Virus record (IMG/VR): IMGVR_UViG_3300029858_000001
Span: 1-27,122 of that record
Reading direction: 5' to 3' (one strand)
DNA length: 27,122 nt
DNA from: a virus
Made by a program: the position numbers and the translations under genes. The notes below the pieces were generated by a model. It made no database searches. It was not told the origin of the DNA and saw only the letters and a program-made list of their open reading frames with translations. This document shows positions 7,640 to 25,452 of the stretch, one piece after another; the stretch's first letter is position 1; every line of letters begins with the position of its first letter.

Positions 7640-7668
7640 AGGGTCGGGAAACCGGCCCTTTTGTTTTG
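7640..7668 (+). terminator. rho-independent terminator (GGGTCGG-GAAA-CCGGCCC plus T-tract)
   Basis: GC-rich hairpin with a GAAA tetraloop, followed by TTTTGTTTT. Confidence 0.7.
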
Positions 7669-7799
7669 CCATTTTAGGGTGCTGCTCCAGCCAAGGTCAG
7701 GCGTCTATACCGAACGTCCAAATTAAAAAGCGGTTTAAGAATTTTTTTGACTAAATGTTAATAATATGATAAAATAATATAAAAAAGGAGTAGATAAAA

Positions 7800-8627: not shown

Positions 8628-8681
8628 TTATTTAATAAAATTATTATATAATATTTATATAATAATAGAAGGGAATAAGAA

Positions 8682-9680
8682 ATGGGTAAAAAAGTTTTAG
8701 TTCCTGAATTTACTGAAAATTGTAGGGGGCTTTTGGAAGGACTATTCAAGATTAGTGAAGTAGGTCTTTTGAAAGCTCTCGGTGATTTTGTATCTAATAA
8801 ATATTCTAATGTAGAAATTACAGAAGATTATGTATATGCTGAAGGCAATATTCCTGTTATGCTTATTGCACATGTAGATACTGTATTTAGACAACCAATT
8901 CGTCAATTTACTTATAATGAGAAAAGAGCTGTTTATAAAGGCAAGGAAGGTCTTGGAGCAGACGATAGAGCAGGTGTTTTTGCGATTATTCAGATTTTGC
9001 GTAAAAAGTATAGACCTTATGTTCTTTTTACAACAGATGAAGAAATGGGTGGCTACGGGGCACATATATTTGTTGAAGCACATCCAACAGCTCCAAATAT
9101 TAAGTATATGATTGAACTTGATAGAGCTGGTGAAAGAGATTGCGTCTTCTATGAGTGTGAGAATTTTACATTCATGGATTATGTTGAAAGTTTTGGTTTT
9201 AAGCAAGCGATTGGGTCATTTACAGATATTAGTATTATTATGCCTGAATGGGAAGTCGCTGGAGTAAATTTATCAGTTGGTTATCATCATGAACATACTC
9301 AGAATGAAGATTTACATATTAGAACATTGTATAATACAATTAGTAAAGTATGTAAAATGCTTGATGATATTGAAAATGCAGATAAATATAAGTTTATCCC
9401 CAGCAAGGAATATCTCCAATGGATTACATTGACTAATAAATATCATATGCCTTATGATTTTGATGATGATAAACTTCTTAATTGTAGTTTTTGTAATCAG
9501 TTGTATTATGAGTGGGAAGATTTTCCTCTTGATATTGATGGAGTAAAAGTTCATGTGTGCCCTGAATGTTTAGCACTTGATCCTAATATTCATCAATGTG
9601 AAAAGTGTTATAATTTATTTTATTCAAATAATATGAAGGAAAGAGTATGTGATAAATGTCGAGTCCCTGTTGTAATTTAA
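8682..9680 (+). CDS. M42/M20-like metallopeptidase-fold protein with a C-terminal CxxC zinc-ribbon array
   Basis: Motifs HVDTV, GADDRAG and TTDEEMGG match the HxD / GxDD(R/K)xG / EE motifs of M42/M20 peptidases. The C-terminus has CSFC, CPEC, CEKC and CDKC. Confidence 0.55.
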   Translation: MGKKVLVPEFTENCRGLLEGLFKISEVGLLKALGDFVSNKYSNVEITEDYVYAEGNIPVMLIAHVDTVFRQPIRQFTYNEKRAVYKGKEGLGADDRAGVFAIIQILRKKYRPYVLFTTDEEMGGYGAHIFVEAHPTAPNIKYMIELDRAGERDCVFYECENFTFMDYVESFGFKQAIGSFTDISIIMPEWEVAGVNLSVGYHHEHTQNEDLHIRTLYNTISKVCKMLDDIENADKYKFIPSKEYLQWITLTNKYHMPYDFDDDKLLNCSFCNQLYYEWEDFPLDIDGVKVHVCPECLALDPNIHQCEKCYNLFYSNNMKERVCDKCRVPVVI

Positions 9681-9760
9681 ATGAAATTAAAGAACAAGTA
9701 AAGAAGGTTATTGCCTATTCATAGGGGCTGGATATTAACCTTTTAAATATTGATAAATTA

Positions 9761-11083
9761 ATGAATGATTGGGAAGAGAATAAATGCAAATTTTATAGTA
9801 GGCTTCCTGGTAATAAATTAATTTATCAAAGCCATACGCCTATTACAATGTCTATTTCAGAAGATGATAAAAAAGCTGAATTAGATTGTTTTATTGACAA
9901 TATTCGTTGGCATTATGGTTTATTTGAATTAAAAGATTTTGTTGAAAATAATAGAAAAGATTTTTATAATAATATTTTAAGCGAAGATTATTCAATGAAT
10001 AATGGGACTGTCATTCCAAAAGGAATGAAAATAATTAAAGCATTTAAATATTTTGTAGAAGATAAGGAAATTCTTACTGAAATACAAGATAAAGCTAGTA
10101 TGCTTATTCAAAATACAAAAATTAGTGGATATTTTTGTATGTCAGTTCATCCATTGGATTATCTTAGTTTAAGTGAAAATACACATAATTGGCGGTCATG
10201 CCATGCTCTTGATGGAGAGTATCGTGCTGGTAATTTATCTTATATGGCAGATAATTGTACAATTATATGTTATATTAAGAGTGAACATGACGCGGTTTTA
10301 CCTAGATTCCCAGAGGATATACCATGGGCAGATAAGAAATGGCGTATGCTTCTTCATGTATCTGATGATAATACTATGGTTATTTCAGGTCGGCATTATC
10401 CTTATGAAAGTAAAGGATTACAAGATTTCGCTCTTGAATTATATGAAACATTTTTCGGGCTAGGATACCGTTTTACTGATTGGTGTCATGAAAAATATAA
10501 TACATTTACAATAAATGATAAAATTTTTTCTAATGAGAGTCGTTTATTACCTACTGGATACGTAATGACCCCAGATATTAAGGTTATTGTTGATCCGAAA
10601 AATCCTTTGCACTATAATGATCCTCTCCATTCTACTGTGTATGACTATTGGTTTAGTATTGCTTATAGTGAACCTTATTGGCATGAAGAAGGTATTCCAC
10701 AAGATAAATTAATTCTTCCAAGAACTCGTACTACTACTAAAGTTAACATAGGACATGGGGTAAAATGCTGTATTTGCGGCAAAAATGATTGTGTTTTAAC
10801 AGATACAATGCTTTGTATTGATTGTGAGCTTGAATATGGTACAGAAGAAACAGAAGATTTTACTTTCTGTAGAGAGTGTGGTAGACGTATTTATATTCCT
10901 GAAGCAATATCATTAGATGATGATGATGGTTATGTATGCCGTAGCTGCGGAGATAATTATTAGATATGTGATAATTGTAATATGTATTATGATAAAAAAG
11001 ATTTAATTTATGATGAAGAAAACAATGCTTATTATTGTGAAGCTTGTTTTGATGAAATTTTATTTGATAGGGAGAATGAATAA
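9761..11083 (+). CDS. paralog of 5522-7165 (HPLDY domain plus zinc-ribbon array), read through TAG at 10961
   Basis: After TAG the frame continues in clearly coding, CxxC-containing sequence to TAA 11081. This overlaps the next start (TAATG). Confidence 0.65.
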
Positions 11084-11391
11084 TGGCAAAAGGTAGTATT
11101 GCTAAAGATGCTGTCGTAGAAAAAATTGCAGAAGCATTTGGTGAAGATTTCCTTGGATCTTATGATAAAAAGTATTATGTGCGAGCTAAAGAAAATGGAC
11201 AATATATTCAGATTGCAATTAGTTTAACTTGTCCGAAGACTCCTGTGGAAAATTTTGGTTCTATGGATTTTGGTAATAATGAACTTAATTTTGAAGATGG
11301 AGCAACAATTCAGCCTGCGAAGAAGGCTACAGAAATTAGTCCAGAGGAAGAAGAAAATTTAAGAGCTTTAATTGAGAAATTAGGATTATAA
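11083..11391 (+). CDS. small acidic hypothetical protein
   Basis: 102-aa ORF. Confidence 0.5.
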   Translation: MAKGSIAKDAVVEKIAEAFGEDFLGSYDKKYYVRAKENGQYIQIAISLTCPKTPVENFGSMDFGNNELNFEDGATIQPAKKATEISPEEEENLRALIEKLGL

Positions 11392-11393
11392 TT

Positions 11394-12005
11394 ATGATTT
11401 TAAGAATAATTTATAATGAAAATGAATCTTATGATTATGATTTAGGAGAATACCATACAGATAAATTTAAACTTTTGACAAGTGTTTATCCAGCTTGTGA
11501 AATTAATATATTATATTTCCATGATATTAATGATACAGAAAATTCTAAATTTGATAAAATTGCAAAAGAAATTCAATCAAAACCTTTTTTATTAATTAAA
11601 GAAGTTCAAATTTTAAATAAAAATACTGTTGTTTTTAAACAAAATAGAATGATAAAAAATATTGTTTATAGAGATATTTTTTATTCTGCTGGTCATAATT
11701 TAATTAAAGAAGAAGCTTTAACATTTAAATTCCAAGAAAATTGTAAAGCTATCATTGATAGAGAAAAAGAACAAATTTTTTGTGATAAAGAAAATTGTAT
11801 GTATTTTAAACAAGGACATTGTTTTAATTATAATACAGACCTTTATCAAAGTGGAGAAGAATTTGTTCCTTGTTATCCTTGTTTTCTTGAATGTGATACT
11901 GGATTTAAATTTTCTGAAATTTATTCATTTTATACAAAGTTACAAAATAAGGCAGAAGATGAGGGACATTTACCTTATCAACCTTATACAATAAGAGATA
12001 ATTGA
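11394..12005 (+). CDS. hypothetical protein (203 aa), Cys-containing
   Basis: ORF immediately after the previous stop. Confidence 0.5.
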   Translation: MILRIIYNENESYDYDLGEYHTDKFKLLTSVYPACEINILYFHDINDTENSKFDKIAKEIQSKPFLLIKEVQILNKNTVVFKQNRMIKNIVYRDIFYSAGHNLIKEEALTFKFQENCKAIIDREKEQIFCDKENCMYFKQGHCFNYNTDLYQSGEEFVPCYPCFLECDTGFKFSEIYSFYTKLQNKAEDEGHLPYQPYTIRDN

Positions 12006-12453: not shown

Positions 12454-12602
12454 GCTCTCGTAGCTCAATTGGTCAGAGCCGGCGACTTATCCAAGATTAG
12501 TTTAAATGGTAAAATAGTCTATGCGCAAGAAAGATGTGAGTTCAAGCCTAACATCTTGGGCCAAATCGCCAGATGTGGGTTCAAATCCCGACGGGAGCAC
12601 CA
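12454..12602 (+). tRNA. tRNA (Ile-like, anticodon loop CTTAT|AA, UAU) interrupted by a 73-nt tRNA-like insertion (12491-12563) after anticodon position 36
   Basis: Outer acceptor GCTCTCG / CGGGAGC-A-CCA. D-arm GCTC-AATTGGTCA-GAGC. Anticodon-stem GGCGA / TCGCC is split by the insert. The insert has termini CCAAGAT / ATCTTGG, a T-arm GTGAG-TTCAAGC-CTAAC, and its own G-CCA. Confidence 0.5.
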
Positions 12603-12628
12603 TATTCCAATAGAAAGGAATTAAAATA

Positions 12629-12868
12629 ATGAAGTTGACGAATATTAAACAGGTTGAAGATTTTATTGCAGCGGTTAATCGCGCTCATAGTAATGTATGG
12701 CTGGTAAGTCCGCAGGGTGACAGATACAATATGAAATCTGCACTTTCACAATATATCGCGCTTGGCGCATTACTTGGTCAGCATGGTGATGAACTGGAAC
12801 TTTTCTGTGATAGTAAGCAAGATGAAGGCTTATTTATTGAATTTTTCATAAAATATCCTGAAGTATAA
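12629..12868 (+). CDS. hypothetical protein (79 aa)
   Basis: RBS GAAAGGAATTAAAATAATG. It lies between tRNA genes and the nuclease gene. Confidence 0.5.
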   Translation: MKLTNIKQVEDFIAAVNRAHSNVWLVSPQGDRYNMKSALSQYIALGALLGQHGDELELFCDSKQDEGLFIEFFIKYPEV

Positions 12869-12871
12869 ATT

Positions 12872-13795
12872 ATGCCTAAACTTATTGATATTCCGATAGA
12901 AACTAAATTTAATAGATGGACTGTTCTTAAAAGAGATACTACTAAGAAACGAGGATACTGGTTTTGTTAGTGCGATTGTGGTAATCCTGAAATTAGAAGT
13001 ATAAATATTACTACATTAAAAAGTGGACGTTCAAAATCTTGTGGTAAATGTGGATAGTATGATGAAATTGGTAAGACTTATGGACGTTTAAAAGTTCTTG
13101 AAGTTGATTTAGATTATAAAGAGTAGTATAAGACTAAAGTTTCAGGTTATTATTATAAATGTTAGTGCTCTTGTGAAAATAAAACAATTATTACCGTAAG
13201 TGGCATTAATTTAAGAAATGGACATACAAAATCTTGCGGATGCTTAATTAAAGAAGGGTGTAATAAAAAAGATCTAACAGGTCAAGTTTTTGGGTTTTTA
13301 AAAGTTTTATATCCGACTGAATAGAGGGTATCTTCTTATATCATTTGGCATTGTCGTTGTTTAAATTGTAATAATGAATGTGATGTTTCATCCAGAAATT
13401 TAATTGAAGGAAGAACTAGCTCTTGTGGATGTTTGCGTTCAGTTGGAGAAGCAAATATAAAAAAAATATTGCAAAATAATTAGATAGATTTTTCTTAGGA
13501 AAAAAATTTTTCAGATTTAATTAATCCAGATACTACATATTTATTACGTTATGATTTTTATTTACCTCAATTTAATAGGCTTATAGAATTTGATGGAGAG
13601 TAGCATTTTAAATATAAAAAAAATAATTCTACTTGGAACAATGAAGAAAATTATTTAAAAACAGTGCATAATGATAAAATAAAAAATGATTATGCTAAAT
13701 AGCACAATATTCCATTAGTTCGTATTCCTTACTGGGAACGTGATAATATTACTCTTGATATGTTATTAGGAGATTAGTATTTAATTAACAAATAA
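12872..13795 (+). CDS. free-standing homing-endonuclease-like protein: three tandem Cys4 zinc-finger repeats (W-C-x-C-x-C-G-N ... S-C-G-C) plus a C-terminal Vsr/PD-(D/E)XK-like nuclease domain (YRYDFYLPQFNRLIEFDGEQHF). Contains 10 in-frame TAG sense codons.
   Basis: Hand translation gives a single frame from ATG 12872 to TAA 13793. The only interruptions are TAG. The repeats WFC(TAG)CDCGNPE, YKC(TAG)CSCENK and WHCRCLNCNNE are each followed by SCG(K)C. Confidence 0.65.
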
Positions 13796-13900
13796 TTTAT
13801 TGAATTTTTTGTCCATCATCCTGAAGTTTAATTGAAAAATTAAAAAAAATATTATAAAATATATATACAAAATAAATGAGAAATAAATTCTCATTTGTAT

Positions 13901-13977
13901 GGGACAGTAGCTTACGAGGTCGGAGCATTGGTCTGAAAAACCAAAGGATGGAGGTTCGATACCTCTCTGTCCCACCA
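13901..13977 (+). tRNA. tRNA-Phe (GAA)
   Basis: Acceptor GGGACAG / CTGTCCC. Anticodon loop CTGAAAA. T-arm GGAGG-TTCGATA-CCTCT. The discriminator is A and CCA is encoded. Confidence 0.85.
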
Positions 13978-13978
13978 A

Positions 13979-14058
13979 TTGGTCTTATACATGGGGTTTT
14001 CGATTTGAACTAGGCAGATTAGTCACCTGCCGTTGGCAATAGACCAATTAAAAATAAA
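13979..14058. ncRNA. short structured element / degenerate tRNA-like hairpin enclosed by TTGGTCT / AGACCAA
   Basis: 7-bp terminal helix. It has an internal GGCAG-ATTAGTCAC-CTGCC stem-loop that reads GTGACTAAT on the minus strand. No canonical cloverleaf forms on either strand. Confidence 0.25.
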
Positions 14059-14195
14059 CTGAGGCAAAGGGAAATCGGGTAGCTATGATGAATTTCATAG
14101 TAAAATCCTCTCATAATCAAGCTAATTGGGAGAGGGGTAGCACGGGAACGGGGAGAAGCGTGCTATAAAAGGTGAAATACTTCTTTCCACCATAT

Positions 14196-14271
14196 GCCGG
14201 TGTAGCCGAATGGCATAGGCGAATGATTTAGGATCATTAATCTGAAGGTTCGAGTCCTTTCACCGGTACCA
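14196..14271 (+). tRNA. tRNA with anticodon UAG (decodes CUN Leu codons) but a type-I (short variable arm) body
   Basis: Acceptor GCCGGTG / CACCGGT-A-CCA. Anticodon-stem AATGA / TCATT. Loop TTTAGGA. T-arm GAAGG-TTCGAGT-CCTTT. Confidence 0.65.
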
Positions 14272-14355
14272 ACAGTGAAGTAGTAGCTATACTCACTATA
14301 ATCAAGGCTCGGTGGTTGGTGGCTCCATCGTTATGTAAATAAGTCATATATATAT

Positions 14356-14426
14356 TACTTCTTGGTGTAATGGAAGCATGCTGCCTGAAAGAGGCGGAGG
14401 TATTGGTTCAATTCCAATAGAAGGAT
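14356..14426 (+). tRNA. tRNA-like element lacking a canonical anticodon loop (loop TGAAAGA or GAAAG pentaloop)
   Basis: Acceptor TACTTCT / AGAAGGA with one mismatch. T-arm ATTGG-TTCAATT-CCAAT is perfect. Anticodon-stem CTGCC / GGCGG. No CCA. Confidence 0.35.
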
Positions 14427-14795
14427 TAATTAAAGCTGGGAAATAATAGTCGCCCATAACTAATTATTTAATATAGGACTATTATTAAAGGTTATTTAAG
14501 TTAAAGAAATGCGGTTGAAGTTATTACTAACTTGATTATAAAATAACATGACCGCAAGACGAGTGTTTGAAGCTTGTCTATAAACAAATTCTTCATATGT
14601 TGTCTTTTTATACTTACTCTTTGGTTGTTTCTTGACATATAAGTAAAAACGGAAAGGGAGTTAAAGGTTCAGCTAAAAAACCGGTTTGTTTTTTGATAAG
14701 GTTTTAAAAATTATTAGGTGACAAAATCTTATTTGAGTGACGCTGCTCAGGAGGGTCCGGAACCTCTGAAATGCGTATAATAAAGGAGATAAAAT

Positions 14796-14972
14796 ATGAA
14801 ATTTCAATTAAGGTATTTTCATTGTCCTATTTGTCATTTACAAATGACGGCTCCTAAAACCAAGAATTTCAAAAAATCTTCTTATAAAGGGAAAAAACAT
14901 CGAAAAATAATGTATTGCATTAATTGTAAAAAAGAACAAAATTTTATTTTAGATGAAATTTCTATTGTATAA
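14796..14972 (+). CDS. small zinc-ribbon protein (58 aa; CPIC...CINC)
   Basis: ATG with RBS AAAGGAG. It is not in the ORF track because it is under 60 aa. Hand-translated MKFQLRYFHCPICHLQM...CINCKKEQNFILDEISIV. Confidence 0.45.
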   Translation: MKFQLRYFHCPICHLQMTAPKTKNFKKSSYKGKKHRKIMYCINCKKEQNFILDEISIV

Positions 14973-15011
14973 ATGATGGTGTGGCCTAGCGGTAAGGCAC
15001 CTGCCTTTGAT

Positions 15012-15745
15012 TTAGTAGCATAAGTAATGCAATTTCGAACTGGGTCAAAGAAGGTTAAGAGAATTAATTTAGGAATTAAATAACAGTGAAAGGAGCTGTT
15101 ATTTATGGCTAAAACTAATTCAGAAAATGTATGTAATTTTGTTAGAAATAGAAAAGCTAATTTAATTTCTTTATTTCATAGTAAATGTTGTATTTGTGGT
15201 TTCGATAAATTTCAAGAAGCTTTAGAATTTCATCATATAAATCCTAAAGAAAAAGAAATTTCTCTATCAGCTAATACAATGGTGTCATTAGAACGTCAAA
15301 TCAATGAGGCTAAAAAATGTATTTTAGTTTGTTCTAATTGCCATAAGGGAATACATGCTGGATATTATCAAATTCCTTCTAATTATTAGGATTTATTTGA
15401 TAATGAATAGGCAGAATATTTATTATAGATGAATAAAGAAATTAAAGAAGGTAAAAAACATTATTGCAAACAATGTGGTAAATTATTAAATTCTAATACA
15501 ACTTATTGTTTAGATTGTAGTCATATTATTTAGCGTAAAACAGAAAGACCAGATAGAGAAACTTTAAAGTAGTTAATTCGTAATTAGTCTTTCGTAGCAA
15601 TAGGTAAATAGTATGGAGTAAGTGATAATGCTATTCGCAAATGGTGTGTTTCTATGAATTTACCTACTAAAAAAACAGAAATTAACCTTTATAATGACGT
15701 CTAGTGGGAATAGATATAAGTTCAAATCTTGTTTAAATCACCATA
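15012..15745 (+). mobile_element. intervening sequence (intron-like) inside the tRNA-Gln anticodon loop, carrying a homing endonuclease gene
   Basis: It lies between the exon halves above. It contains ORF 15105-15719. A hairpin AACAG-TGAAAGGAGC-CTGTT presents the SD. Confidence 0.6.
15105..15719 (+). CDS. HNH homing endonuclease (N-terminal HNH: CCICGF...HHINPKE...CSNCH; C-terminal HTH: LIRN(Q)SFVAIGK(Q)YGVSDNAIRKWC) with 7 in-frame TAG sense codons
   Basis: The standard-code ORF is 15105-15389. With TAG read as sense the frame continues to TAA 15717. The frame was verified codon by codon. Confidence 0.7.
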
Positions 15746-15784
15746 AGCAGGGTACCGAGGGTTCAAATCCCTCCACCATCACCA

Positions 15785-16315
15785 GGTCAAGTTTGAGAAA
15801 TTTCATAAAGCATCGCTGACGTTAAATGGCACTTATATGAAAACGCGTAAGTAATATAAGATAGCAAAATTCTCGTAGTTCATCCTATTAGAGAATCTTA
15901 AAGAGTAATGGCAAGATCATATCGCGGGAGACCGTGCGTATGAGATACCAATAAAGGTAGCACATCTTGTGTTGAGCAAGATAAAAGATGGAAAGGATAC
16001 CTGCCATGCTTGGACGGTAAAAGAAGGCGTTGAATGTAATCGAAAAACATTCCGTTGGTTCTTAGGGGAGCGACGTAACAGTGAAACCCGAGGTTTGAGT
16101 CACCTTGTCCAAACGCTATGTATAGTCAAAGTCTAGGCAACAAGGTTTTAATTAGAGTTAATATTGTTTTAATTAAACTCATACTTGTGGAAATCAAGCA
16201 GGTCCACCTTACTGGGCCTACTGTAAAAGCCAGTTTGATATAGCCTCCATACCCAATGAGGATTTTTATAAAAGTCTATTTAATTTTTCGGGCGGTTTAA
16301 TTAGATAGATTAAAT
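15785..16315. ncRNA. about 530-nt non-coding, comparatively GC-richer, hairpin-rich region between tRNA-Gln and tRNA-Val. Candidate structured RNA of unknown class.
   Basis: No ORF in any frame even allowing TAG. TAA/TGA are dense in all frames. Many local helices are present (GTGGA...TCCAC, CCTC...GAGG). It contains a TATAGTC motif reminiscent of group I P7 but no matching GACTA partner. Confidence 0.3.
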
Positions 16316-16392
16316 GCCGAGATAGTGCAACTGGTTAACACGTCGCTTTTACACAGCGAAGAGTCTGAGTTCAAGTCTCAGTCTCGGCACCA
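16316..16392 (+). tRNA. tRNA-Val (UAC)
   Basis: Acceptor GCCGAGA / TCTCGGC-A-CCA. Anticodon-stem TCGCT / AGCGA. Loop TTTACAC. T-arm CTGAG-TTCAAGT-CTCAG. Confidence 0.85.
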
Positions 16393-16457
16393 ACAAATTT
16401 GAAAATTTAAAAAAAATATTATATAATATATATATAATAATAAAGGAGATATTTGAA

Positions 16458-16622
16458 ATGGCAACTACTAAGAAACCTGCAATTAAAATGGATAATACAG
16501 AGTTGAACGAGTATCTTCTGTTTCGCCGTCGTAGATCTATTGTTCCTGCTAAGAAAGGCAAGGGCATGGAATATGATAGAGCAAAGGAAAAAGAAAAGTC
16601 AAGAGATTTGGCTTCTGATTAA
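16458..16622 (+). CDS. small basic protein (54 aa)
   Basis: RBS AAAGGAG. Hand-translated MATTKKPAIKMDNTELNEYLLFRRRRSIVPAKKGKGMEYDRAKEKEKSRDLASD. It is embedded in the tRNA operon. Confidence 0.45.
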   Translation: MATTKKPAIKMDNTELNEYLLFRRRRSIVPAKKGKGMEYDRAKEKEKSRDLASD

Positions 16623-16726
16623 CTTAGGCGGCAAGAACATTTCTGTTCCTTGTAAATATAGCACATACTAATAACTTAGGAGTTGTGCCCTACAGCCAGT
16701 GAGTAGTTTTCAGGCTGGCATTATAT

Positions 16727-16801
16727 GGCCCCATCGACAAGTGGTCAAGTCCCAGGGTTTTCATCCCTGTATCGTCGGTTCGAATCCGGCTGGGGTCACC
16801 A
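16727..16801 (+). tRNA. tRNA-Glu (UUC)
   Basis: Acceptor GGCCCCA / TGGGGTC-A-CCA. Anticodon-stem CAGGG / CCCTG. Loop TTTTCAT. T-arm GTCGG-TTCGAAT-CCGGC. Confidence 0.85.
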
Positions 16802-16899
16802 TTAAGTGTGATATATTCCAAACACGTAGGGTGGTAAGCACACGGGTTTTCTAGAAGCCTTCCCTATGAATATGGGAGACTAGCCTAGTGGTTCAGGCA

Positions 16900-17373
16900 G
16901 CGGACTGTTTCTTCTGACTTACAATGTTGTAGAATTATGTTAAATTCAAAACAAATTGGTAATATCACAGAAATGGAATCAATGCTTGCTTTTTTAAAGT
17001 TAGGTTATAATGTTCTTACTCCTTATGGAGATTGTGAGCGTTATGACTTCGTAGCTGATGTGAATGGAAATTTTTATAAAATTCAATGTAAAACTTCTCA
17101 TGCTTTTGGTGAGAATGAAGGTATTGAATTTAGTTGCAGAAGTTCTCATCGAGCCGAAGGAAAATGTATTAACGAACGATATACAGCAGATGATGTAGAT
17201 TTTTTTGCTACAACATTTAATGGGAAATGTTATTTAGTTCCTTTTAATGAATGTGGTGGCAGTAAAAAATTAAGATTTGTTAATCCAAAAAATGGACAAA
17301 TTCAACGAGTATCATTTGCTGAAAATTATGAATTAGAGAAGGTGTTAATGACATTGTAACTGATGTAAGAAGC
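16900..17373 (+). mobile_element. intervening sequence in the tRNA-Asn anticodon loop carrying a PD-(D/E)XK homing endonuclease gene
   Basis: Bounded by the exon halves above. ORF 16937-17359 occupies nearly all of it. Confidence 0.55.
16937..17359 (+). CDS. PD-(D/E)XK homing endonuclease, I-Ssp6803I-like (known from a cyanobacterial tRNA-fMet intron)
   Basis: Motif ERYDFVADVNGNFYKIQCK fits D...(D/E)xK. The size is 140 aa. It lies inside a tRNA anticodon loop. It has no TAG codons. Confidence 0.55.
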   Translation: MLNSKQIGNITEMESMLAFLKLGYNVLTPYGDCERYDFVADVNGNFYKIQCKTSHAFGENEGIEFSCRSSHRAEGKCINERYTADDVDFFATTFNGKCYLVPFNECGGSKKLRFVNPKNGQIQRVSFAENYELEKVLMTL

Positions 17374-17519
17374 AATCCGCCAAGCAAGGTTCAATTCCTT
17401 GGTTTCCCGCCACCGCACTCGCGGAAAACATACAACTCAACTGGTGCATAGAACTGGATGGAGCGTTCTATTAGTCTGATGCCTGCATTAGATTAAGTTT
17501 TATAACCATCATACTTGGG

Positions 17520-17590
17520 GACATAGTTTATGGTAGGAAAACGTTGAATTTAATTCAAAGTCGAGGGTTCGAATCCCACTCCCGCAACCA
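17520..17590 (+). tRNA. tRNA-like 3' element (GAGGG-TTCGAAT-CCCAC ... TCCCGCA-A-CCA) with an unresolved 5' partner. Possibly another split or degenerate tRNA.
   Basis: Canonical T-loop and a CCA end. No complementary acceptor 5' strand was found within 150 nt. Confidence 0.25.
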
Positions 17591-17713
17591 TATGAAAAGC
17601 CCATACAGCAACTTTTAATAGGATAAATAAGAAATTCTGCAAAAATTTTTTAGAGTTGGTTCAAATCCAGCAAATGATTTTAGGGCTTTGTTAAAATTAT
17701 TAAGGAGAAAATA

Positions 17714-17899
17714 ATGAAGTTTAATCCAGGAGATAAGGTCTGGTGTAAGAGGTACGGTAAGGGTAAGTGCCGCAAGGCTGATAATAAGGATAATTTTATG
17801 ACTTATCTTTTCAGATTTTATGATGGCACTTTAATTTGGATGCCAAAACATCAGGCTGAACATTTTGTAAAAGTTCGTTCCACCGAGGCCACGGTGTGA
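17714..17899 (+). CDS. small hypothetical protein (61 aa)
   Basis: RBS AAGGAG. ORF in the track. Confidence 0.5.
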   Translation: MKFNPGDKVWCKRYGKGKCRKADNKDNFMTYLFRFYDGTLIWMPKHQAEHFVKVRSTEATV

Positions 17900-18059
17900 A
17901 TATAAAGTCCGGTTATAGGAAATCCTGTCATTAGGCGGCAGGCTACCGGTAATCCTTTCTTATATATTTAAATATGTAAGGAACAAAAACTATACAATAG
18001 ATAGAGTTTTTACGCCTTGGCGCAATGCTTGTTTTTTTACTATCTATTTTTTTATACTT

Positions 18060-18151
18060 GTTGGGTTGGCTGAGAGGTCGATAGCGGCTGCCTGCTAAGC
18101 AGTTGTCCCTGGAAACGGGGACCAAAGGTTCAAATCCTTTACCCAACGCCA
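18060..18151 (+). tRNA. tRNA-Ser (GCU), type II
   Basis: Acceptor GTTGGGT / ACCCAAC-G-CCA. Loop CTGCTAA. Long variable arm TGTCCCTGGAAACGGGGACC. T-arm AAAGG-TTCAAAT-CCTTT. Confidence 0.85.
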
Positions 18152-18157
18152 TTATAT

Positions 18158-18245
18158 GTAGGAGTGCCAGAGTGGTCGATTGGGTTAGTCTCCAAAACTA
18201 ATTGTAGCTACACATCCAGGGTTCGAATCCCTTGCTCCTATGCCA
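18158..18245 (+). tRNA. tRNA with anticodon CCA (Trp-decoding) but a type-II body (3-bp D-stem with 11-nt D-loop, 14-nt variable arm TTGTAGCTACACAT)
   Basis: Acceptor GTAGGAG / CTCCTAT-G-CCA. Anticodon-stem TTAGT / ACTAA is perfect. Loop CTCCAAA. Confidence 0.5.
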
Positions 18246-18604: not shown

Positions 18605-18643
18605 CTCGTTTCAGATTCGTTCATTGCATTTCATCCTTTCTAA

Positions 18644-18680
18644 AAATAAATCCATCTTTAAAGATGGATTTATTTTTTTG
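18644..18680 (+). terminator. rho-independent terminator ending the tRNA array
   Basis: Perfect hairpin AAATCCATCTTTAAAGATGGATTT followed by TTTTTTT. Confidence 0.75.
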
Positions 18681-18783: not shown

Positions 18784-19155
18784 ATGGTTTATGAAATTAC
18801 TTGTACTGATCCTAATGGAGAGAAAAAAACTTTAATTGTTTAGGATACAGACAACATTAAAATAAGTATAGAATATCAAGAAAGTGGAAATCTTCTTACT
18901 TTCGCAAATGATTTTAATCAATAGGCTGAAAAAAGTTCTGATATGGATAATCTTTTTAATTTTCTATCAAAAAAAGATACAGATTTTAGTATCAGCGTTA
19001 ATGTAAATGAAAATAAATTTAGTTATGCTACTTTTAAGTCAATAACTAATATTAAATATACTATTAGTTTAAATCCAACAGAAAATAAAAGACCAGATAC
19101 TAAATTATTTACAGCTATGGTTCAAGCTGAATTTAAAAAAGGAGATGAAGTATAA
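18784..19155 (+). CDS. small protein (123 aa, 2 TAG sense codons), tandem paralog of the next gene
   Basis: RBS AAGGAGG. Frame is continuous with track ORF 18943-19155. Shared motif DFSISVNVNENKFSYATFKSITN. Confidence 0.55.
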
Positions 19156-19541
19156 TGTTGATTTATGATATATCTTTTATAGATAGCAATTCTGAAAAAC
19201 ATAGTATTCCATTCCCAATACCAAATACTAATATTGAAATTTCCTATGGTACAGATCAAAAACGTTATTTAACTTTAACTTATAAATATAATACTACAGA
19301 AGAAAGAGAAGAATACCTAAGCAAAATATAGCAATTTAATTTAAGTTCTAATTCTGATTTTACTATTTCTATTTTAGATGATGATAATTCAGTTTCTTCT
19401 TTTATTTTTACTACTTTTAAAAATTTAAGAGAAGAAGAAGTTCAAAATACTATAAATAAAGATTATATCTATCGAGCTATAGATGATAGTCCTAAATTTG
19501 AATTACATTTATTCTGTCAATTAGGTGAAAATAATGAGTAA
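19155..19541 (+). CDS. small protein (128 aa, 1 TAG), paralog of 18784-19155
   Basis: The start overlaps the previous stop (TAATG). Motif DFTISILDDDNSVSSFIFTTFKN. Confidence 0.5.
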
Positions 19542-20124
19542 AATTTTATGGGATGATTTAAAAACTTTATATACTGAATTAAATACTCAAAGATAGAAAT
19601 TTTAGTTAGATACTGTTAGTGTCCCATCCAATTAGAATAAACAAACTAAAACCAGTGATATATCTACTTTAAAAGATGCTATTCAATCTATGAGTTCTCA
19701 TGCTTAGATTGGGGACAATGCTTCTACTACCTCAGTAATTGTTCCTGATTAGTATAGCCAAATGCGTCAAACCCCAATTACTCAAATGCGAACAGTAATT
19801 AATCGTATTTCTTAGTTAGCATTTAACGCTGGTAATTTTAGTAATCATAATGGTACTAATTTCGGTGGATTCCATAGTAGCCATTTTGGTGGCTTCGATG
19901 GCTTTAATTTTAGTGGATTCCATAGCGGTAATTTTACTAATGTTAATAACAGCAATAATGCTAATGTGAATAATAGTAATAATGCCGGTTTTTATAATAG
20001 TAATAATACTGGTAATAATATTCCATGTTTTAATGGTAATTATAATTTTAACATTAGTAGCCATAGATGTACCAGTTTTAGCTGTCCTAGCTTCAGATGT
20101 TTTAACTGTAGATTTAATCCGTAA
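19534..20124 (+). CDS. Gln(TAG)-rich protein with a low-complexity N/G/F/H/S repeat region (GGFHSSHFGGFDGFNFSGFHSG) and a Cys-rich C-terminus (CFNGNYNFNISSHRCTSFSCPSFRCFNCRFNP). Candidate precursor or substrate of the downstream radical-SAM enzymes.
   Basis: Hand translation with 8 TAG read as sense. It ends at TAA 20122. It lies immediately upstream of rSAM gene 1. Confidence 0.5.
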
Positions 20125-20159
20125 AATAATAATAATAATAACTAAGAAAGGTTATATTA

Positions 20160-21638
20160 ATGGATAAAATTATAAATTGTTTAGATAAAATAAATTGGAA
20201 AACTGTTATAATAGTTTCTGGAGGATGTAATTTAAATTGTAAGTACTGTTTAGTTAATAAATCTAAATCAGGAACTAACTATCCTAATTTTTTAAAAGAT
20301 ACTAATGCTGCGATAGCTAATGGTTCTTACTTAGATACTTTTAAAAAAGCATTTTAGAAATATAATCAAAGTCCTCGCCAAGTTGAAATTATGGAATTAT
20401 GGGGCAATGAACCAACTTTAATGCTTAAAGATTTAAATAAAGTTTGGAAAGACTGGTTAGAAGTTTTTTCTGGATTAAAAGGAATGACTTTTTCAACAAA
20501 CGGAATTGATTGTACTGATGATATATTTAATTTTATTTTAGAAATAGATAAGTATATCGACCATGAAATAGAAATAAGTATTTAGTATTCTTATGATGGC
20601 TTTCAAGGTGAAATAAATGAAAGACAACATAACAAAGAGAAGAAAGATACAGAATAGGATAGCATAGTTATTAATAATTTAATTAATTTAATAACAAAAC
20701 TTAACAGTGTAAAATTACATAATGTTAAAATAGATTTTATTCTTCATGCTGTACTATCTATGTTTATTGTAGATAATTTTAATACAACTGAAGATATTAG
20801 TAAATTTGTTGAACAATATATGGATACACTATATAGAATTAATCAATCTATTATCAACCAAAGAATTATATTCCGTGGAGGAGTATTTTTACATGAAAAT
20901 GCTCATGATTGGACCAGCGATGATGGAATTAATTATTGTAGCTTTATGAGAAAGTTCCAAAATATTTTAAGTGCTAAGAAACATAATTTTAAAAATGAAG
21001 GCGTCCAATATAGACATATTTTTAAAGAAGTTTTTGGAACTTTAGAAGAGGATATAATTAGTTTATGTTATAAAACTAATTGTCGTTCAATTGATACATT
21101 AATAGATAATTTTATAACTAATAAAGATTTACCAATTAATAGTTATTGTAGTTCTTTTGATGGTGTTTTACGAATAGATTATCAAGGAAATCTTTTAGAC
21201 TGCCATGCTTCTTTATATGACCCTTACCTAGAAAAGGATAAATTAACTAATACAATTTTAGATCAGGGTCGATGGATGTGTAAAGAACATGGACGGTATC
21301 TTAATATTCTAAAAAATGATAAAGAAGAAATTGAAAAATTACTTGATTTTTATCTTACTGCTCGTGACCCAACGGTAACTTTATTTGAAACATAGCAAAT
21401 GATAAATAAAATATATTTATTAGCTTTATGTGGATAGGCTAATGAATCTTATCTATATGATTTTAATAAATTAAAACGTCATGCTTTTATACTGGCTAAA
21501 GCATATCAATGCTATAATATATTAAAATGCCGGAATGGCTCTATTTTTGTTAGAGGAAATGAAGAAATAAGATTTTTCTGTAATGGTATTTTAGATATAG
21601 CTGAAGAAAATATAAATAGAGAAATTGGAGATTTTTAA
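20160..21638 (+). CDS. radical SAM enzyme with a SPASM/twitch domain (CNLNCKYC is CxxxCxxC; GNEPTL is the GGEP-like motif; CSSFDGVLRIDYQGNLLDC is Cx12Gx4C). It includes 4-5 TAG sense codons. Track fragments 20160-20357, 20391-20585 and 20760-21395 are one frame.
   Basis: All fragments are in frame 0 and separated only by TAG (20355, 20583, 20655). After TAG 21393 the same frame continues through a Cys-rich tail (ALCGQ, YQCYNILKCRNG, FFCNG) to TAA 21636. The minimal end is 21395. Confidence 0.65.
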
Positions 21639-21640
21639 TA

Positions 21641-23065
21641 ATGACTTATAAAGAACAAGAAAGAGATTTATTAAAATTATATTTAGATACAGCTTTATTA
21701 CCATATCCCACTAATTCAAATTCTGATGGAGACTATTTTTTAAATGAAAATGGATTTGAATTAATAGTACGTCCTTAGTGTAATTAGCATTGTTCATATT
21801 GCTATATAGCTAATTATGGCAAAGAACTTTATCCAACAGTGTTAAATAAAAAGGATACTTTAAAAAATATTGATCTTGTTTTAGATTATGTTTATAATAT
21901 AAGAAAAAATTTCTGTTATAATATAGCTCTGTTTGCCGGAGATATGTTTAATGATGAAATTTTCTTTGATATTGTTGATCTGCTTGAAAAATATCTAAAT
22001 CCTATTTTAATAAAACATCCTGAATATTTTAATAAACAGGGTTTAATTCAATGTCCTTGTAATTTACGATGGGTATATGAAAAACCTCAATTAGTATCAA
22101 GATTTAGAAAAATATATTATCATTTTAAAAATGTTTATAATATATATATGAGTTTTTCTTGGAGTACTGATGGATTACCAGCAATAAAAAATAGAGAAAA
22201 AATTGATATAGATCAACATTATTTTGATACTATTTTTTAGTTTACTAAAGAATTTGGTTTCGGATACCATCCTATGATTAGTGCCGAAAATATTGATGTT
22301 TGGTGTGAAAATATTGATTGGTGGTATGACATGTATAAGAAATTTGATTTAGCTGCTCCTAATGGTTATTATCAACCTTATATGCTTGAAGTACGTAATG
22401 GTAATTGGACTCCAGAAACTATTGAATTACATAATAAATTTCTTGAACATTTTATGAAAAAAAGATTTGAATTATGTGATAGTGATAAAACTAAATTTGT
22501 ACATCATTTATTAATTGGGACTGATGAAGATGGAAATTTACCATTCCCTCAAGGATGTGATCCATTAGATTTAAAATCCAGTAGCTCAACAAGTAGTAAT
22601 TTTGATAAAATGAGCTGTGGTGCTTAGAGTATGATTCATTTTAATTGTACTAATCTATCTTTAGTATTTTGTCATAGAATGTCTTATCCTCTTTACACTG
22701 GTGGGTATTTTAAAACAGATGAAGAGAAAAATCATATTATTGATATAGATCCCTATAATGTAAGTGCATATATAACTATGAAAACGGCAAAAACAACTAC
22801 TTTCCCTTTGTGCGCAAAATGCAAATACTTTAGTCTTTGCAAGTTAGGATGTCTTGGGGCTTAGACTGAAGATAGTGGAGAACCTTATATGCCAATTAAA
22901 GCTGTTTGTGCTTTTAATAAAGTTAAATATGAAAAATTGACTGATTTATATTATCAATATGGTGTTTATGATATAGGAGTTAAAAAAGGTTGGCTCACAA
23001 AAGATAAATCTTGGTTAACATTTATCTACAATCAAGGAATAGAAAGAGGGTATATAAATGAATAA
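21641..23065 (+). CDS. second radical SAM / SPASM enzyme (P(Q)CN(Q)HCSYC is CxxxCxxC with two TAG inside the motif; C-terminal CAKCKYFSLCKLGC is CxxCx5Cx3C). Track fragments 21839, 22274 and 22631 are one frame with 5 TAG.
   Basis: Frame 2 is continuous from ATG 21641 (RBS GGAGAT) to TAA 23063. The interruptions at 21776, 21785, 22238, 22625 and 22862 are all TAG. Confidence 0.65.
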
Positions 23066-23423
23066 AAAAGTTAAATTTTTAATTGCCTTAAATTCTATTA
23101 AAGAAAACTTTGATATTAATAATATAAATGATTATCAAGAATTAATTGATATTTGCAGTCGAATAAATTATGCAAAAGAAAAGGATGAAGATATTCTTTC
23201 ATTCGTTAAAGAAATTATATAGTTAATTGCATTAAAATAGATAGACTCAAAAGAATGTGATTCTTGTTGGCAAGAATATATACCTGATATTCCAATTGAC
23301 AATCAACCTGAAAATGATGATTTTTATAGTCATAGTAATACTTTTTAGAATTTATTTAAATTGGATATATTCAATCCTTTAAATCCAGATTATAAGTATA
23401 CAAATATTTTAAAATTTAATTAA
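23058..23423 (+). CDS. small hypothetical protein (about 121 aa, 3 TAG)
   Basis: ATG overlaps the previous gene's end. Hand-translated in frame 0 to TAA 23421. Confidence 0.4.
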
Positions 23424-23438
23424 AAAGAGAAAAAAATA

Positions 23439-24296
23439 ATGATTTATTTTACTTTACAAAATTTTTATGAAAATCAAAAATTAAATAATATATTTTTCAT
23501 TGTGCAAGATAAATTTTCTGGCTCTTTTAAAGTTCCTGTTAAATTTATTTATACCGCCGGTTCTTTCCCCTATACCTATTGGAACGGCGGTATAAATAAC
23601 AACTTTGGTATTGGCGATAATACTTATGATACAATTATAGAATATTCTAATAATAACCTATTGCCTTTAAGAATTAATTGTAGTAATATTAATTTAAATC
23701 CTAATGATTTTGATGATACTATTATGAATGTAATTTTAAATTTATTAAATAATAGTAGCAATGCTATTGAATTATCAAATTTGGAATTATATGAATATCT
23801 ATATAAAAAGTATCCTAACTTTCATTATATTTTATCGAATAATTTTAACTTAATTAACTCACTAACTCCAGAATTAATTAATAAATTGAATGAAATTTGT
23901 GATTTTTATTTAATTCAAATTCCATTAAATAAAATTAAAGATTTAAATTTCTTAAAAGCAATACAAAATAAAAGGAACATTGAGTTACCTGTTGGAGATA
24001 TTTGTAATTGTACAAGTTTAGACGATTGTAATATTAAAGAACAAATAGCTCAATATAACTATTCAGATTCTTTTACTAAAATAAATTGTTCTAAATGTTC
24101 AGGACTTAATTATAGTTTATCTATAGAAGATATTCAGAATAATTATGTTCCTTTAGGATTTCATAATTTTATTTTACCAGATTATTGTAATTCAAAAAAT
24201 AATAATATAATTAAATTTTTTATTGATTTTTTTATTAAAGATTCTGACAAATTATTGATTTATGAATTTATAGAGGAGCAAATGTATTATGGTTAA
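23439..24296 (+). CDS. U32-family-like protein A (paralog of the next gene; Cys-rich, CNCTSLDDC, CSKCSG)
   Basis: Shares NSLTPE, PLGF(H/E) and YP(N/M)(F/Y)(H/K)Y motifs with 24289-25158. No TAG. Confidence 0.45.
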   Translation: MIYFTLQNFYENQKLNNIFFIVQDKFSGSFKVPVKFIYTAGSFPYTYWNGGINNNFGIGDNTYDTIIEYSNNNLLPLRINCSNINLNPNDFDDTIMNVILNLLNNSSNAIELSNLELYEYLYKKYPNFHYILSNNFNLINSLTPELINKLNEICDFYLIQIPLNKIKDLNFLKAIQNKRNIELPVGDICNCTSLDDCNIKEQIAQYNYSDSFTKINCSKCSGLNYSLSIEDIQNNYVPLGFHNFILPDYCNSKNNNIIKFFIDFFIKDSDKLLIYEFIEEQMYYG

Positions 24297-25158
24297 GTAT
24301 GCAATTCCAGGAATGTATGAATTAGCAAATTTAAATTTTAAACTCTTAGATTTAAAATCTGCTAATCCTGAATATTTTTACGATGACGTAGAAATTGAAA
24401 TTAGTTATGGTAATCCTCAATTTTGTATCTGGGATGGAGGAAGAGTATTTTCTTTTTATAAACAAGCTTCTATTGATATTATAAAAAATATAATTGATAC
24501 ATATAATAATAAATATCATATCCCTATTAGATATGTATTTACAAATAATCAATTAACTCCAAAAGAATATAAAAATAGATTTTGTAATTTATTAATGGAA
24601 GCAGGAAGTAACGGTCCTAATGAAGTAGTAGTCGCTGATGATGATTTTATGCTTTATCTTAAAGAACAATATCCTATGTATAAATATGTATCATCGACTA
24701 CTAAAGTTATTACTGATCCAGAAGAGGCAAAAAAAGAAATTGATAAAAAAGATTATAAACTTACCTGTTTACATTATGATTTAAATTTCAATTTTAAATT
24801 TTTGAATTCTTTAACACCAGAAGAGCGAGCAAAAACAGAGTTTTTAATTAATCCAATCTGTCCTGCTGGTTGTCAATTCAGAAAAGAACATTATAAACTG
24901 AACAGTCAAATGGTTTTAAATTATGGTAAATCTTACACTACTCCTTGGTGCGGAATTACTAAAAATAATTTCTATCCATCTGTTCGTAAAAATCATATGA
25001 GTTATGAACTAATTAAAGAAAAATATGCTCCTTTAGGTTTTGAGCATTATAAAATTGAAGGACGTACTTGGGAAGAGTTAGAGGCAGCTTTAACTTATTG
25101 CGAGTATATGATAAAACCAGAATATCAAAATTACGTACTACCTTATTTAATGGGCTGA
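24289..25158 (+). CDS. peptidase-U32-family protein B (RlhA/UbiU/UbiV/TrhP superfamily)
   Basis: The C-terminal motif GFEHYKIEGRT matches the conserved U32 KIEGR segment (compare E. coli YhbU HSLKIEGRTKS). Cys residues CPAGC and WCG may bind an Fe-S cluster. No TAG. Confidence 0.5.
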   Translation: MVKYAIPGMYELANLNFKLLDLKSANPEYFYDDVEIEISYGNPQFCIWDGGRVFSFYKQASIDIIKNIIDTYNNKYHIPIRYVFTNNQLTPKEYKNRFCNLLMEAGSNGPNEVVVADDDFMLYLKEQYPMYKYVSSTTKVITDPEEAKKEIDKKDYKLTCLHYDLNFNFKFLNSLTPEERAKTEFLINPICPAGCQFRKEHYKLNSQMVLNYGKSYTTPWCGITKNNFYPSVRKNHMSYELIKEKYAPLGFEHYKIEGRTWEELEAALTYCEYMIKPEYQNYVLPYLMG

Positions 25159-25187
25159 TTAATTTAATCAGTCCATCTTTTTTTTTA
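25155..25187 (+). terminator. probable terminator (palindrome CTGATTAA-T-TTAATCAG followed by a T-run)
   Basis: 8-bp perfect hairpin. The T9 run begins 6 nt downstream. Confidence 0.45.
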
Positions 25188-25338
25188 TATATTTTAAAGA
25201 CAGTAGGTTATGAACTGCTCTAGCCGGCTTGGGATGCTAAAACCGAATGCTTAAATTAAAATTCCATTTAAGAAATTTTCGGTCCAATAGGTATAGAGCA
25301 ACATAAAATAATTTTAAATATGAAAGGAGAAGGACAAT

Positions 25339-25452
25339 ATGAAAATGTTTATTCTTTCATATAAGGGCGGCAAAGACGGCGGCGACATTGACAAAGAAGA
25401 TACTTCTAAGTCAACAGGCGGCTGGGATGGCGGCTCTATAGATGATGATTAA
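25339..25452 (+). CDS. 37-aa Gly/Asp-rich peptide (MKMFILSYKGGKDGGDIDKEDTSKSTGGWDGGSIDDD)
   Basis: RBS AAAGGAGAAGG at good spacing. It lies between the U32 genes and the tail-fiber genes. Confidence 0.35.
   Translation: MKMFILSYKGGKDGGDIDKEDTSKSTGGWDGGSIDDD

Follow-up and report, generated by a model that had tools for sequence, protein, structure and literature searches.

We analysed a 27,122-nucleotide (nt) stretch of viral DNA, IMG/VR record IMGVR_UViG_3300029858_000001 (this whole stretch is called the window here), with a focus on a gene module that is read on its plus strand. The module encodes two radical S-adenosylmethionine enzymes (rSAM1 and rSAM2), two U32-like proteins (U32a and U32b), a protein with a disordered, aromatic-rich tail that is their putative substrate (A), and three further small proteins (up1, up2 and orf121). 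The eight genes form one terminator-bracketed operon at 18784-25158, in which adjacent genes overlap or are separated by at most 35 nt. The operon and its boundaries are as follows.

18642-18677, plus strand: upstream boundary, an intrinsic-terminator-like hairpin with a 16-bp stem and then a T-rich tail, which closes a tRNA array
18784-19155, plus strand: up1, 123 amino acids (aa), two in-frame TAG codons, a paralogue of up2
19155-19541, plus strand: up2, 128 aa
19534-20124, plus strand: A, 196 aa, putative substrate
20160-21638, plus strand: rSAM1, 492 aa, radical SAM enzyme with a twitch-like C-terminus
21641-23065, plus strand: rSAM2, 474 aa, radical SAM enzyme with a canonical SPASM domain
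23058-23423, plus strand: orf121, small acidic helical protein
23439-24296, plus strand: U32a, 285 aa, U32-like TIM-barrel paralogue
24289-25158, plus strand: U32b, 289 aa, U32-like TIM barrel
25150-25186, plus strand: downstream boundary, an intrinsic terminator with its hairpin at 25150-25176 (12-bp stem), then T9

A preliminary description of this DNA had listed the five main open reading frames (ORFs) correctly (A, rSAM1, rSAM2, U32a and U32b), but had overlooked orf121, up1 and up2 as members of the operon. The five ORFs are real on condition that TAG is a sense codon. Under the standard code all ORFs of the window are short beyond approximately 12 kb, and long ORFs were regained at 19456-25158 when TAG was read as sense. 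The proposed reading of TAG as Gln was upheld by alignment with homologues, including those of a standard-code prophage: codons 142 and 426 of rSAM1 and codons 49, 329 and 408 of rSAM2 align with invariant or near-invariant Gln columns. A contains six in-frame TAG codons, all within its N-terminal domain, rSAM1 and rSAM2 contain five each and orf121 three; U32a and U32b have none.

Four terminator-like sites were found in an 8.8-kb scan, against 1.9 expected. The downstream terminator coincides with a mosaic junction to a tail-fibre block. Past it, the window and a closely related locus (L003) are approximately 97% identical, with tail-fibre proteins at 96-97% identity, whereas the module proteins share just 55-81%; this suggests a recent recombination at the terminator. 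A 37-aa Gly/Asp-rich ORF (25339-25452), previously counted as part of the module, sits past the terminator within the tail-fibre block. The ORF has its own strong ribosome-binding site, and its protein is identical in L003 and a second near-identical relative (L004), all three substitutions being synonymous. It was found beside the module only in these two relatives and was absent at every more distant locus. As it lies behind the terminator in a 97%-identical block, the ORF travels with the tail-fibre genes and heads their block. In the 150 nt before it, which are conserved (97% identical to L003/L004), nothing indicated an RNA element (fold z = -1.5, no compensatory changes).

Two parts make up protein A, a helical domain that is conserved (residues ~1-95) and a disordered tail (residues ~96-196), with a pLDDT above 90 in the domain and below 50 in the tail of an AlphaFold2 model. 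The tail in the window contains 28% Asn, 17% Phe, 13% Ser and 12% Gly, and has 24 aromatic residues and five Cys. A phmmer search with the A domain against 1.84 billion representatives yielded a family of 85 clusters at 50% identity. Nearly all of these proteins have 130-280 aa and are made up of the domain, placed N-terminally, and a tail of 30-150 aa rich in aromatic residues, Ser, Asn and Gly. The overall size range is 130-420 aa, with a tail of up to ~300 aa at locus L060, and in six clusters, as at locus L008, the domain is C-terminal. The nearest structures to the A domain in BFVD were all uncharacterised gut-phage proteins, and none of A, up1, up2, orf121 and the proteins of an upstream syntenic block described below could be annotated with Pfam, NCBIfam or PHROGs.

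The sequence of the A tails is hypervariable and their composition is constant. Across 73 tails of the family (5710 residues), the composition was Ser 19.6%, Phe 15.0%, Asn 12.2%, Gly 11.9%, Thr 7.0%, Tyr 4.8%, His 3.0%, Cys 2.9% and Trp 0.9%. Aromatic residues made up a median of 24% of a tail and most often followed one another at a spacing of 4. Ser was found at position +2 of 28% of the aromatic residues (1.4-fold enriched) and Asn at position -3 of 22% (1.8-fold). N-x-S/T sequons occurred at 5.0 per 100 aa, compared to 3.2 expected. A sharp sequence motif was not found in the tails, only the constant composition and these mild positional preferences. The Cys-rich C-terminus of A, initially noted as a feature of the system, is shared by close relatives only and is absent from the homologues at loci L001 and L007. 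Because the Cys-rich end is lineage-specific and Cys-free tails exist (15 of 73), Cys chemistry of the sactipeptide or ranthipeptide type is not the common denominator of the family. One family member (P0169, 373 aa) carries a Hint/intein-like domain (CLIPGT...IVHN) at its C-terminus, after the aromatic-repeat tail, a hint that in this lineage the tail is autoproteolytically processed or ligated. As A was encoded beside the module enzymes at every complete locus examined, its place as the co-transcribed candidate substrate is supported.

Both radical SAM enzymes have the CX3CX2C motif. rSAM1 matched Pfam PF04055 with 32.2 bits (gathering threshold 29.5), whereas rSAM2 as a single sequence gave 15.5 bits. 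In family alignments from related loci (nine members for rSAM2, eight for rSAM1) the motif cysteines were invariant, C23, C27 and C30 in rSAM1 and C47, C51 and C54 in rSAM2. The preliminary description had proposed two enzymes with SPASM or twitch motifs, and this was borne out in full for rSAM2. Its C-terminus has seven Cys that are invariant in all nine members (C326, C344, C391-x2-C394-x5-C400-x3-C404 and C423), corresponding to the seven-Cys SPASM pattern (CX9-15GX4C, gap, CX2CX5CX3C, gap, C), which holds two auxiliary 4Fe-4S clusters. The SPASM model TIGR04085 was matched by four of the nine members (best 7.9e-6), with the window's own rSAM2 at E 0.01, below the cut-off. The best solved relative of the rSAM2 profile in the PDB was the sactionine synthase CteB (5wgg; 2.9e-6). 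Among NCBIfam models, the rSAM2 family matched PapB and QhpD (8/9 each), nif11 (5/9), SPASM (4/9) and SCIFF (3/9), all far below the curated cut-offs.

rSAM1 has half of the SPASM motif. The only invariant cysteines at its C-terminus are those of C330-x12-G-x4-C348 and C451, so that the full seven-Cys pattern is lacking, and its predicted auxiliary-cluster domain is twitch-like or a partial SPASM domain. The enzyme also has a WGxEP (GGE-like) motif. Its family matched PapB (7/8), N_Twi_rSAM (5/8; best 1.7e-12) and the cyclophane synthase YhhB (4/8). YhhB was also the best NCBIfam match of the window's rSAM1 (25.4 bits, cut-off 445); FxsB gave E 0.17, and XyeB was matched by one of the eight members. 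The curated models did not place rSAM1 in the triceptide synthase (3-CyFE) family. Neither enzyme was classified as a ribonucleotide reductase activase or as HemN-like, the classes named at the outset as speaking against a peptide-modifying role. That role is in line with the nearest families found, which are the PapB, QhpD, nif11, SCIFF, YhhB and CteB maturases, at scores below their cut-offs.

U32b is the best-conserved gene of the module, with 234 homologues at E<=0.001. Four of its cysteines are invariant (C160, C191, C195 and C221) and two near-invariant (C46 and C140); the invariant cysteines of U32a are C189, C191, C197 and C217. U32a matched the profile of U32b with a probability of 98.8% (hhalign, E 1.3e-16), and the two are therefore paralogues. 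Their TIM-barrel fold is closest to the U32 peptidase structure and agrees with the U32 fold. The proposal of a U32 pair thus stood with regard to paralogy and fold; a direct match of the window proteins to the U32 model PF01136 was not obtained at E<=1, nor did any NCBIfam model match them. PF01136 was found in 8 of 46 aligned U32b relatives at E<=0.01 (best 5.5e-5), and 3 of the 120 U32b homologues listed carried a precomputed PF01136 label. The PDB yielded no informative match by sequence, whether queried with single proteins or with the U32b profile, and Foldseek against the PDB returned generic TIM barrels only. As a further candidate for a U32 paralogue, the family of the window gene 7800-8627 was tested with hhalign and rejected.

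Four conserved Cys that ligate a 4Fe-4S cluster are a trait of most U32 proteins (PMC10990095). Hydroxylation by UbiU-V is independent of O2 and uses prephenate as the oxygen donor, and this chemistry has been proposed for the whole family (PMC10990095). Apart from those of ubiquinone synthesis, the characterised U32 members have RNA as their substrate (PMC10990095, PMC6599085, PMC5727448). In a standard-code prophage (loci L001/L052), a bona fide DAHP (3-deoxy-D-arabino-heptulosonate 7-phosphate) synthase is encoded two genes past U32b (L001:11514-12317; TIGR01361, 350 bits; not a 3-deoxy-D-manno-octulosonate 8-phosphate synthase). The gene would thereby count among phage auxiliary genes, in this case one of the shikimate pathway. 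Solo U32b-like genes without rSAM partners (26-35% identity; L014-L048, L074-L084) occur in Lachnospiraceae, Treponema and other metagenome-assembled genomes (MAGs) and in viral contigs. The neighbourhoods of those with 30-35% identity, mostly from Lachnospiraceae, were variable and gave no functional hint; a few lie beside a gene for a 336-aa rSAM/SPASM protein.

The small ORFs hold fixed positions in the module. An ORF of ~115-150 aa was found directly upstream of A at 16 of 18 loci, with weak homology across loci. up1 and up2 matched each other at ~1e-7 (phmmer), and the up1 homologue in L003 is 50% identical. Between rSAM2 and U32a, an ORF of 87-227 aa was present at all 16 loci checked that have the two genes in this order, three of which add a larger gene there; orf121 has a homologue in L001 at 3e-7.

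More than 30 loci from phages or prophages keep the order up-like ORF, A, rSAM1, rSAM2, small ORF, U32a, U32b, even where identity falls to 22-35%, and the carriers include both TAG-recoded and standard-code phages. In the close relatives of the window, the module lies on contigs of 67-188 kb. It was also found in MAG contigs of GTDB (L007-L011, L031) and in phage contigs (L049-L051). In IMG/VR, an alignment-based scan recovered a U32b relative on 33 contigs (9-218 kb, with 26 longer than 75 kb), 22 of which carry module genes, whereas a scan with the single protein gave none; most of these 22 are viral contigs of 110-200 kb. A standard-code copy is present in a SPbeta-like prophage, alongside YonG, YonD, YonB and terminase genes, in the Clostridiales Family XIII strain PM5-7 (GCA_050435405.1). 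Searches of INPHARED phages gave no DNA or protein match for the 6-kb region or rSAM1, and for U32b four unannotated faecal-metagenome fragments; hence no cultured phage in that collection carries the module.

Some loci deviate from or add to the common plan. L007 holds two complete tandem modules (L007:5391-19086) with different A tails and an rSAM-GT2 (family 2 glycosyltransferase) fusion gene between them; upstream of these there are two more genes for rSAM-GT2 fusions and one for a third U32-like protein. Loci L008 and L059 are rearranged to U32a, U32b, up-like ORF, A, rSAM1, rSAM2. A YcaO gene, present at no fewer than six loci, lies immediately past U32b in L009, L053, L054, L073 and L080, and a few genes past rSAM2 in the rearranged L059. 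GT2 genes or rSAM-GT2 fusions were found at no fewer than seven loci, L001, L007 (three copies), L011/L055, L050, L054 and L059. L011 also has an aldo-keto reductase that includes a ferredoxin domain, and the loci L001, L007 and L053 have a U32-like paralogue in addition to U32a and U32b.

Upstream of the module, the window contains a block of genes that is syntenic with it and an array of tRNA genes, three of which are predicted to be split by introns (ARAGORN and intron search).

7237-7632, 7800-8627, 8682-9680, 9761-10963, 11083-11391 and 11394-12005, plus strand: block of genes with homologues beside the module elsewhere
12454-12602: Trp(cca) tRNA with a 73-nt intron (ARAGORN)
14975-15784: Gln(ttg) tRNA with a 735-nt intron that contains the ORF 15105-15719 (ARAGORN)
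16874-17412: Asp(gtc) tRNA with a 464-nt intron that contains the ORF 16937-17359 (ARAGORN)

Within the block, 8682-9680 encodes an M20/M28-like peptidase and 9761-10963 a Zn-ribbon-rich 400-aa protein, a paralogue of that of 5522-7165. In L009, L049 and L054 the module is immediately preceded by the first five block genes (7237-11391), and in L008 by four of these. The gene 11394-12005 encodes a Cys-rich protein of 203 aa, homologues of which are encoded in L001 and L007 just ahead of the up-like ORF and A. Block and module are kept apart in the window by the tRNA/intron array (12.0-18.7 kb), which from this comparison looks like an insertion. The array comprises 8-10 genes at 12454-18245. 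In L003/L004, the equivalent region is occupied by GIY-YIG homing endonucleases. A further tRNA-like sequence (17517-17584; Rfam tRNA, 32.6 bits; no ARAGORN call) has the anticodon loop AUUUAAU, giving the anticodon UUA, and is a possible suppressor of stop codons. A tRNA with the anticodon CUA was not found in the window, despite the reading of TAG as Gln. The use of TAG is uneven across the window, as 10 other genes within 1-12 kb are also TAG-free. The gene 7800-8627 has two in-frame TAG codons, with its true start at 7800 rather than at a TTG at 8037, and the ORFs 10-525 and 9761-10963 seem to terminate at TAG. In the early region (2418-5418) there are genes for an RlaP-like nucleotidyltransferase, for a calcineurin-like phosphoesterase and for a homologue of HslV-family peptidases.

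We consider it probable that the region is a phage-borne post-translational modification cassette, resembling those for peptides that are synthesized ribosomally and post-translationally modified (RiPPs), with protein A as the substrate. A is assigned this role because it combines a conserved domain with a hypervariable, compositionally constrained tail and is always found beside two SPASM/twitch rSAMs, often with YcaO or GT2. From the RiPP-like cluster that was originally proposed, the maturase-type rSAMs and the co-conserved precursor-like gene are thereby retained, and the 37-aa peptide and the Cys-rich tail are not. As the genes are TAG-recoded, the module is presumably expressed late.

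In the mechanism that we propose, the helical domain of A, whether N- or C-terminal, would serve as a leader-like docking element. rSAM2, with its SPASM domain and two auxiliary clusters, and the twitch-like rSAM1 would generate 5'-deoxyadenosyl radicals that abstract hydrogen atoms in the A tail. They would thus install intramolecular cross-links at the aromatic residues of the tail, cyclophane-like as in triceptides, and Cys thioethers where Cys is present. Since aromatic density, and not Cys, is universal in the tails, cyclophane cross-linking of the triceptide type is the closest analogy for the two rSAMs. The U32a/U32b pair would, in the manner of UbiU/UbiV, be an Fe-S hydroxylase of aromatic side chains that is independent of O2 and dependent on prephenate. 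The DAHP synthase of one lineage would be consistent with a demand for prephenate. The YcaO, GT2, rSAM-GT2 and aldo-keto reductase/ferredoxin genes of individual lineages may add backbone or glycosyl modifications.

As to the fate of the product, A, with its 130-420 aa and folded domain, is not the short peptide of the RiPP definition. We tentatively suggest a modified protein that retains its domain and functions once the cell has lysed, in virion-associated or free form; a toxin peptide released by proteolysis is a rather doubtful alternative. The modified protein is slightly favoured over the toxin because the conserved core lacks a protease, an exporter and an immunity gene, the tails are long and the carriers are mostly large, probably lytic, recoded phages. 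A more far-reaching version of the proposal, which we regard as speculative and on balance unlikely, is that U32a/U32b are the first protein-acting U32 enzymes. They would convert Phe, Tyr, His and Trp of the tail into phenolic or catecholic residues, which the rSAMs would then cross-link and which in some lineages would be joined by glycosylation or azolines/thioamides. The product would be rigid, protease-resistant, and adhesive or metal-binding, and would be made under anoxia by large gut phages.

Several observations weigh against a modification cassette with A as its substrate. Every family match of the rSAMs is far below the curated cut-off, and their chemistry is therefore unreadable from homology. 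rSAM1 also shows weak matches to Tes, MoaA, BtrN-type and KamA-type models, and non-peptide substrates are known for SPASM and twitch enzymes as well. Pfam and NCBIfam scans detected no RiPP recognition element (RRE) or PqqD domain in the module core, and no protease, exporter or immunity gene was found in the conserved core. The positional motif at the tail aromatics is modest. The known substrates of U32 hydroxylases are quinone and RNA only, and the DAHP synthase is found in a single lineage.

Among the other explanations, a classical bacteriocin cluster for lysogenic conversion survives best, and we rate it as unlikely. Here A would be a precursor with a long leader, the tail of which is cleaved off, exported and used to kill competitors, comparable to sublancin. 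The SPbeta-like prophage among the carriers (YonG, YonD, YonB, terminase) and the precedent of phage-borne RiPPs (bioRxiv 10.1101/2020.10.01.322628) speak for it, and so do traits usual in RiPP clusters, namely a variable core, more than one precursor (L011/L055) and tailoring enzymes, as well as the M20/M28-like peptidase of the upstream block. However, the conserved core has no transporter, no immunity gene and no dedicated leader peptidase. Most carriers are viral contigs of 110-220 kb, many of them TAG-recoded with the module among the recoded (late) genes, and tails of up to ~300 aa (L060) and a C-terminal domain in some proteins also speak against it.

It is improbable that the enzymes mature a virion component, namely the Mtd_N tail-fibre proteins, with A as an unrelated small structural or chaperone protein. 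The module lies directly upstream of two Mtd_N tail-fibre genes in the window, L003 and L004, and in L050 a Gp10_C baseplate-like gene is found 5 kb upstream. A terminator and a recombination junction nevertheless divide the module from the tail-fibre block, and the adjacency is limited to the closest relatives of the window: the module is beside terminase/head genes in L001/L052, and no tail-fibre gene is adjacent in L009, L049, L051, L053-L060 and others. In addition, A and two small ORFs are the sole invariant non-enzyme partners. The preliminary description had offered modification of a virion component as its alternative, and the only argument for it, adjacency, is lost at these other loci.

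Modification of nucleic acids appeared slightly less probable still. According to this explanation, the U32 proteins would hydroxylate pyrimidines in phage tRNA, rRNA or DNA in the manner of TrhP and RlhA, with the rSAMs as partners and the tRNA array as a target. It draws on the activity of non-ubiquinone U32 members on RNA (PMC10990095, PMC6599085, PMC5727448) and on the position of the module directly after the tRNA array in the window. The array, however, is an insertion by comparison with L009, L049 and L054, where the syntenic block abuts the module without it. The rSAMs are of the SPASM/twitch type with matches to peptide maturases, and not of the RlmN/Cfr/MiaB types, and the YcaO/GT2 additions and the obligatory aromatic-repeat protein suit protein chemistry. 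Production or modification of a small molecule (cofactor, sugar or lipid) by the four enzymes, with A as a scaffold or regulator, can be set aside as very improbable: the weak rSAM1 matches to Tes, MoaA and KamA-type models, the GT2 fusions and aldo-keto reductase at some loci and the lipid-soluble aromatic substrate of UbiU/V point that way, but a disordered tail that is hypervariable in sequence and constrained in composition, like that of A, marks a modified core and not a scaffold, each of the duplicated modules of L007 has its own divergent A, and rSAM2 is nearest to protein/peptide maturases.

Full-text literature searches returned no account of an rSAM-rSAM-U32-U32 module or of the A family, which is not proof of novelty. 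If A is the substrate, the module represents a large, undescribed family of phage-borne protein or peptide modification systems, and the combination of rSAM/SPASM maturases with U32-like Fe-S proteins has not previously been reported. The mostly uncharacterised U32 family would, if the proposal is true, gain its first protein substrate, and an anaerobic path to hydroxylated aromatic residues would be at hand. RiPP-like chemistry would then reach large stop-codon-recoded gut phages, beyond the bacteriocins of prophages, and would raise the question of what purpose a hyper-modified, disordered, aromatic-rich protein serves for a lytic phage. The standard-code copy in the cultured Clostridiales strain PM5-7 renders this directly testable.

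Of the known systems, triceptide systems (XyeB, FxsB, YhhB, ChlB) share with the module a SPASM-type rSAM encoded beside a precursor that is dense in aromatic-x-x motifs, in which all four aromatic residues are used (PMC11499958). Unlike them, the module has two different rSAMs, two U32-like enzymes, two small ORFs, phage carriers and no detected RRE, and A differs from triceptide precursors in its folded domain of ~100 aa at either end and tails of up to ~300 aa. The His-Xaa-Ser system (repeat protein HxsA, rSAMs HxsB and HxsC, and HxsD; TIGR03978) resembles the module in its paired rSAMs, tripeptide-like repeat protein and small accessory protein, and some tails of the A family are rich in H-x-S (P0155, P0200). 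In contrast, HxsB was weakly matched by one of nine rSAM2 and one of eight rSAM1 relatives (1e-4), and the HxsA and HxsD models gave no match for A, orf121 or up2, which places the module outside this system. To our knowledge, the Hxs system has no U32 partner.

The seven-Cys SPASM domain of rSAM2 is shared with its best PDB and NCBIfam relatives, CteB (SCIFF), PapB (ranthipeptides) and QhpD (gamma subunit of quinohemoprotein amine dehydrogenase), the last of which is a precedent for the cross-linking of a real protein subunit. These are thioether maturases, whereas 15 of 73 A tails are Cys-free and Cys makes up 2.9% of the tail residues; the scores are also below the family cut-offs. U32a and U32b resemble UbiU/UbiV, TrhP and RlhA (PMC10990095, PMC6747719, PMC6599085, PMC5727448) in the TIM barrel, the four invariant Cys in each protein and the anaerobic setting, and UbiU/UbiV also in being two adjacent paralogues. 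They differ in that the window proteins, the invariant Cys of which are candidate cluster ligands, do not reach PF01136, and the substrates of the known enzymes are ubiquinone precursors and RNA pyrimidines, none of them a peptide or protein.

The sublancin cluster of SPbeta (sunA, sunS, bdbA/B, sunT, sunI) is phage-borne like the module, one carrier of which is SPbeta-like, and GT2 additions to the module are frequent. SunS is itself a member of the GT2 family. Unlike the sublancin cluster, which has an exporter and an immunity gene and no rSAM or U32 protein, the module has neither exporter nor immunity gene and is carried mostly by large, probably lytic phages. The initial statement that a phage-encoded RiPP system is uncharacterised was too broad, given the glycocin sublancin of the SPbeta prophage (bioRxiv 10.1101/2020.10.01.322628). 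Compared with these systems, modification based on rSAM/SPASM enzymes is known in kind, whereas the combination of enzymes in the module is unusual and its substrate family is new.

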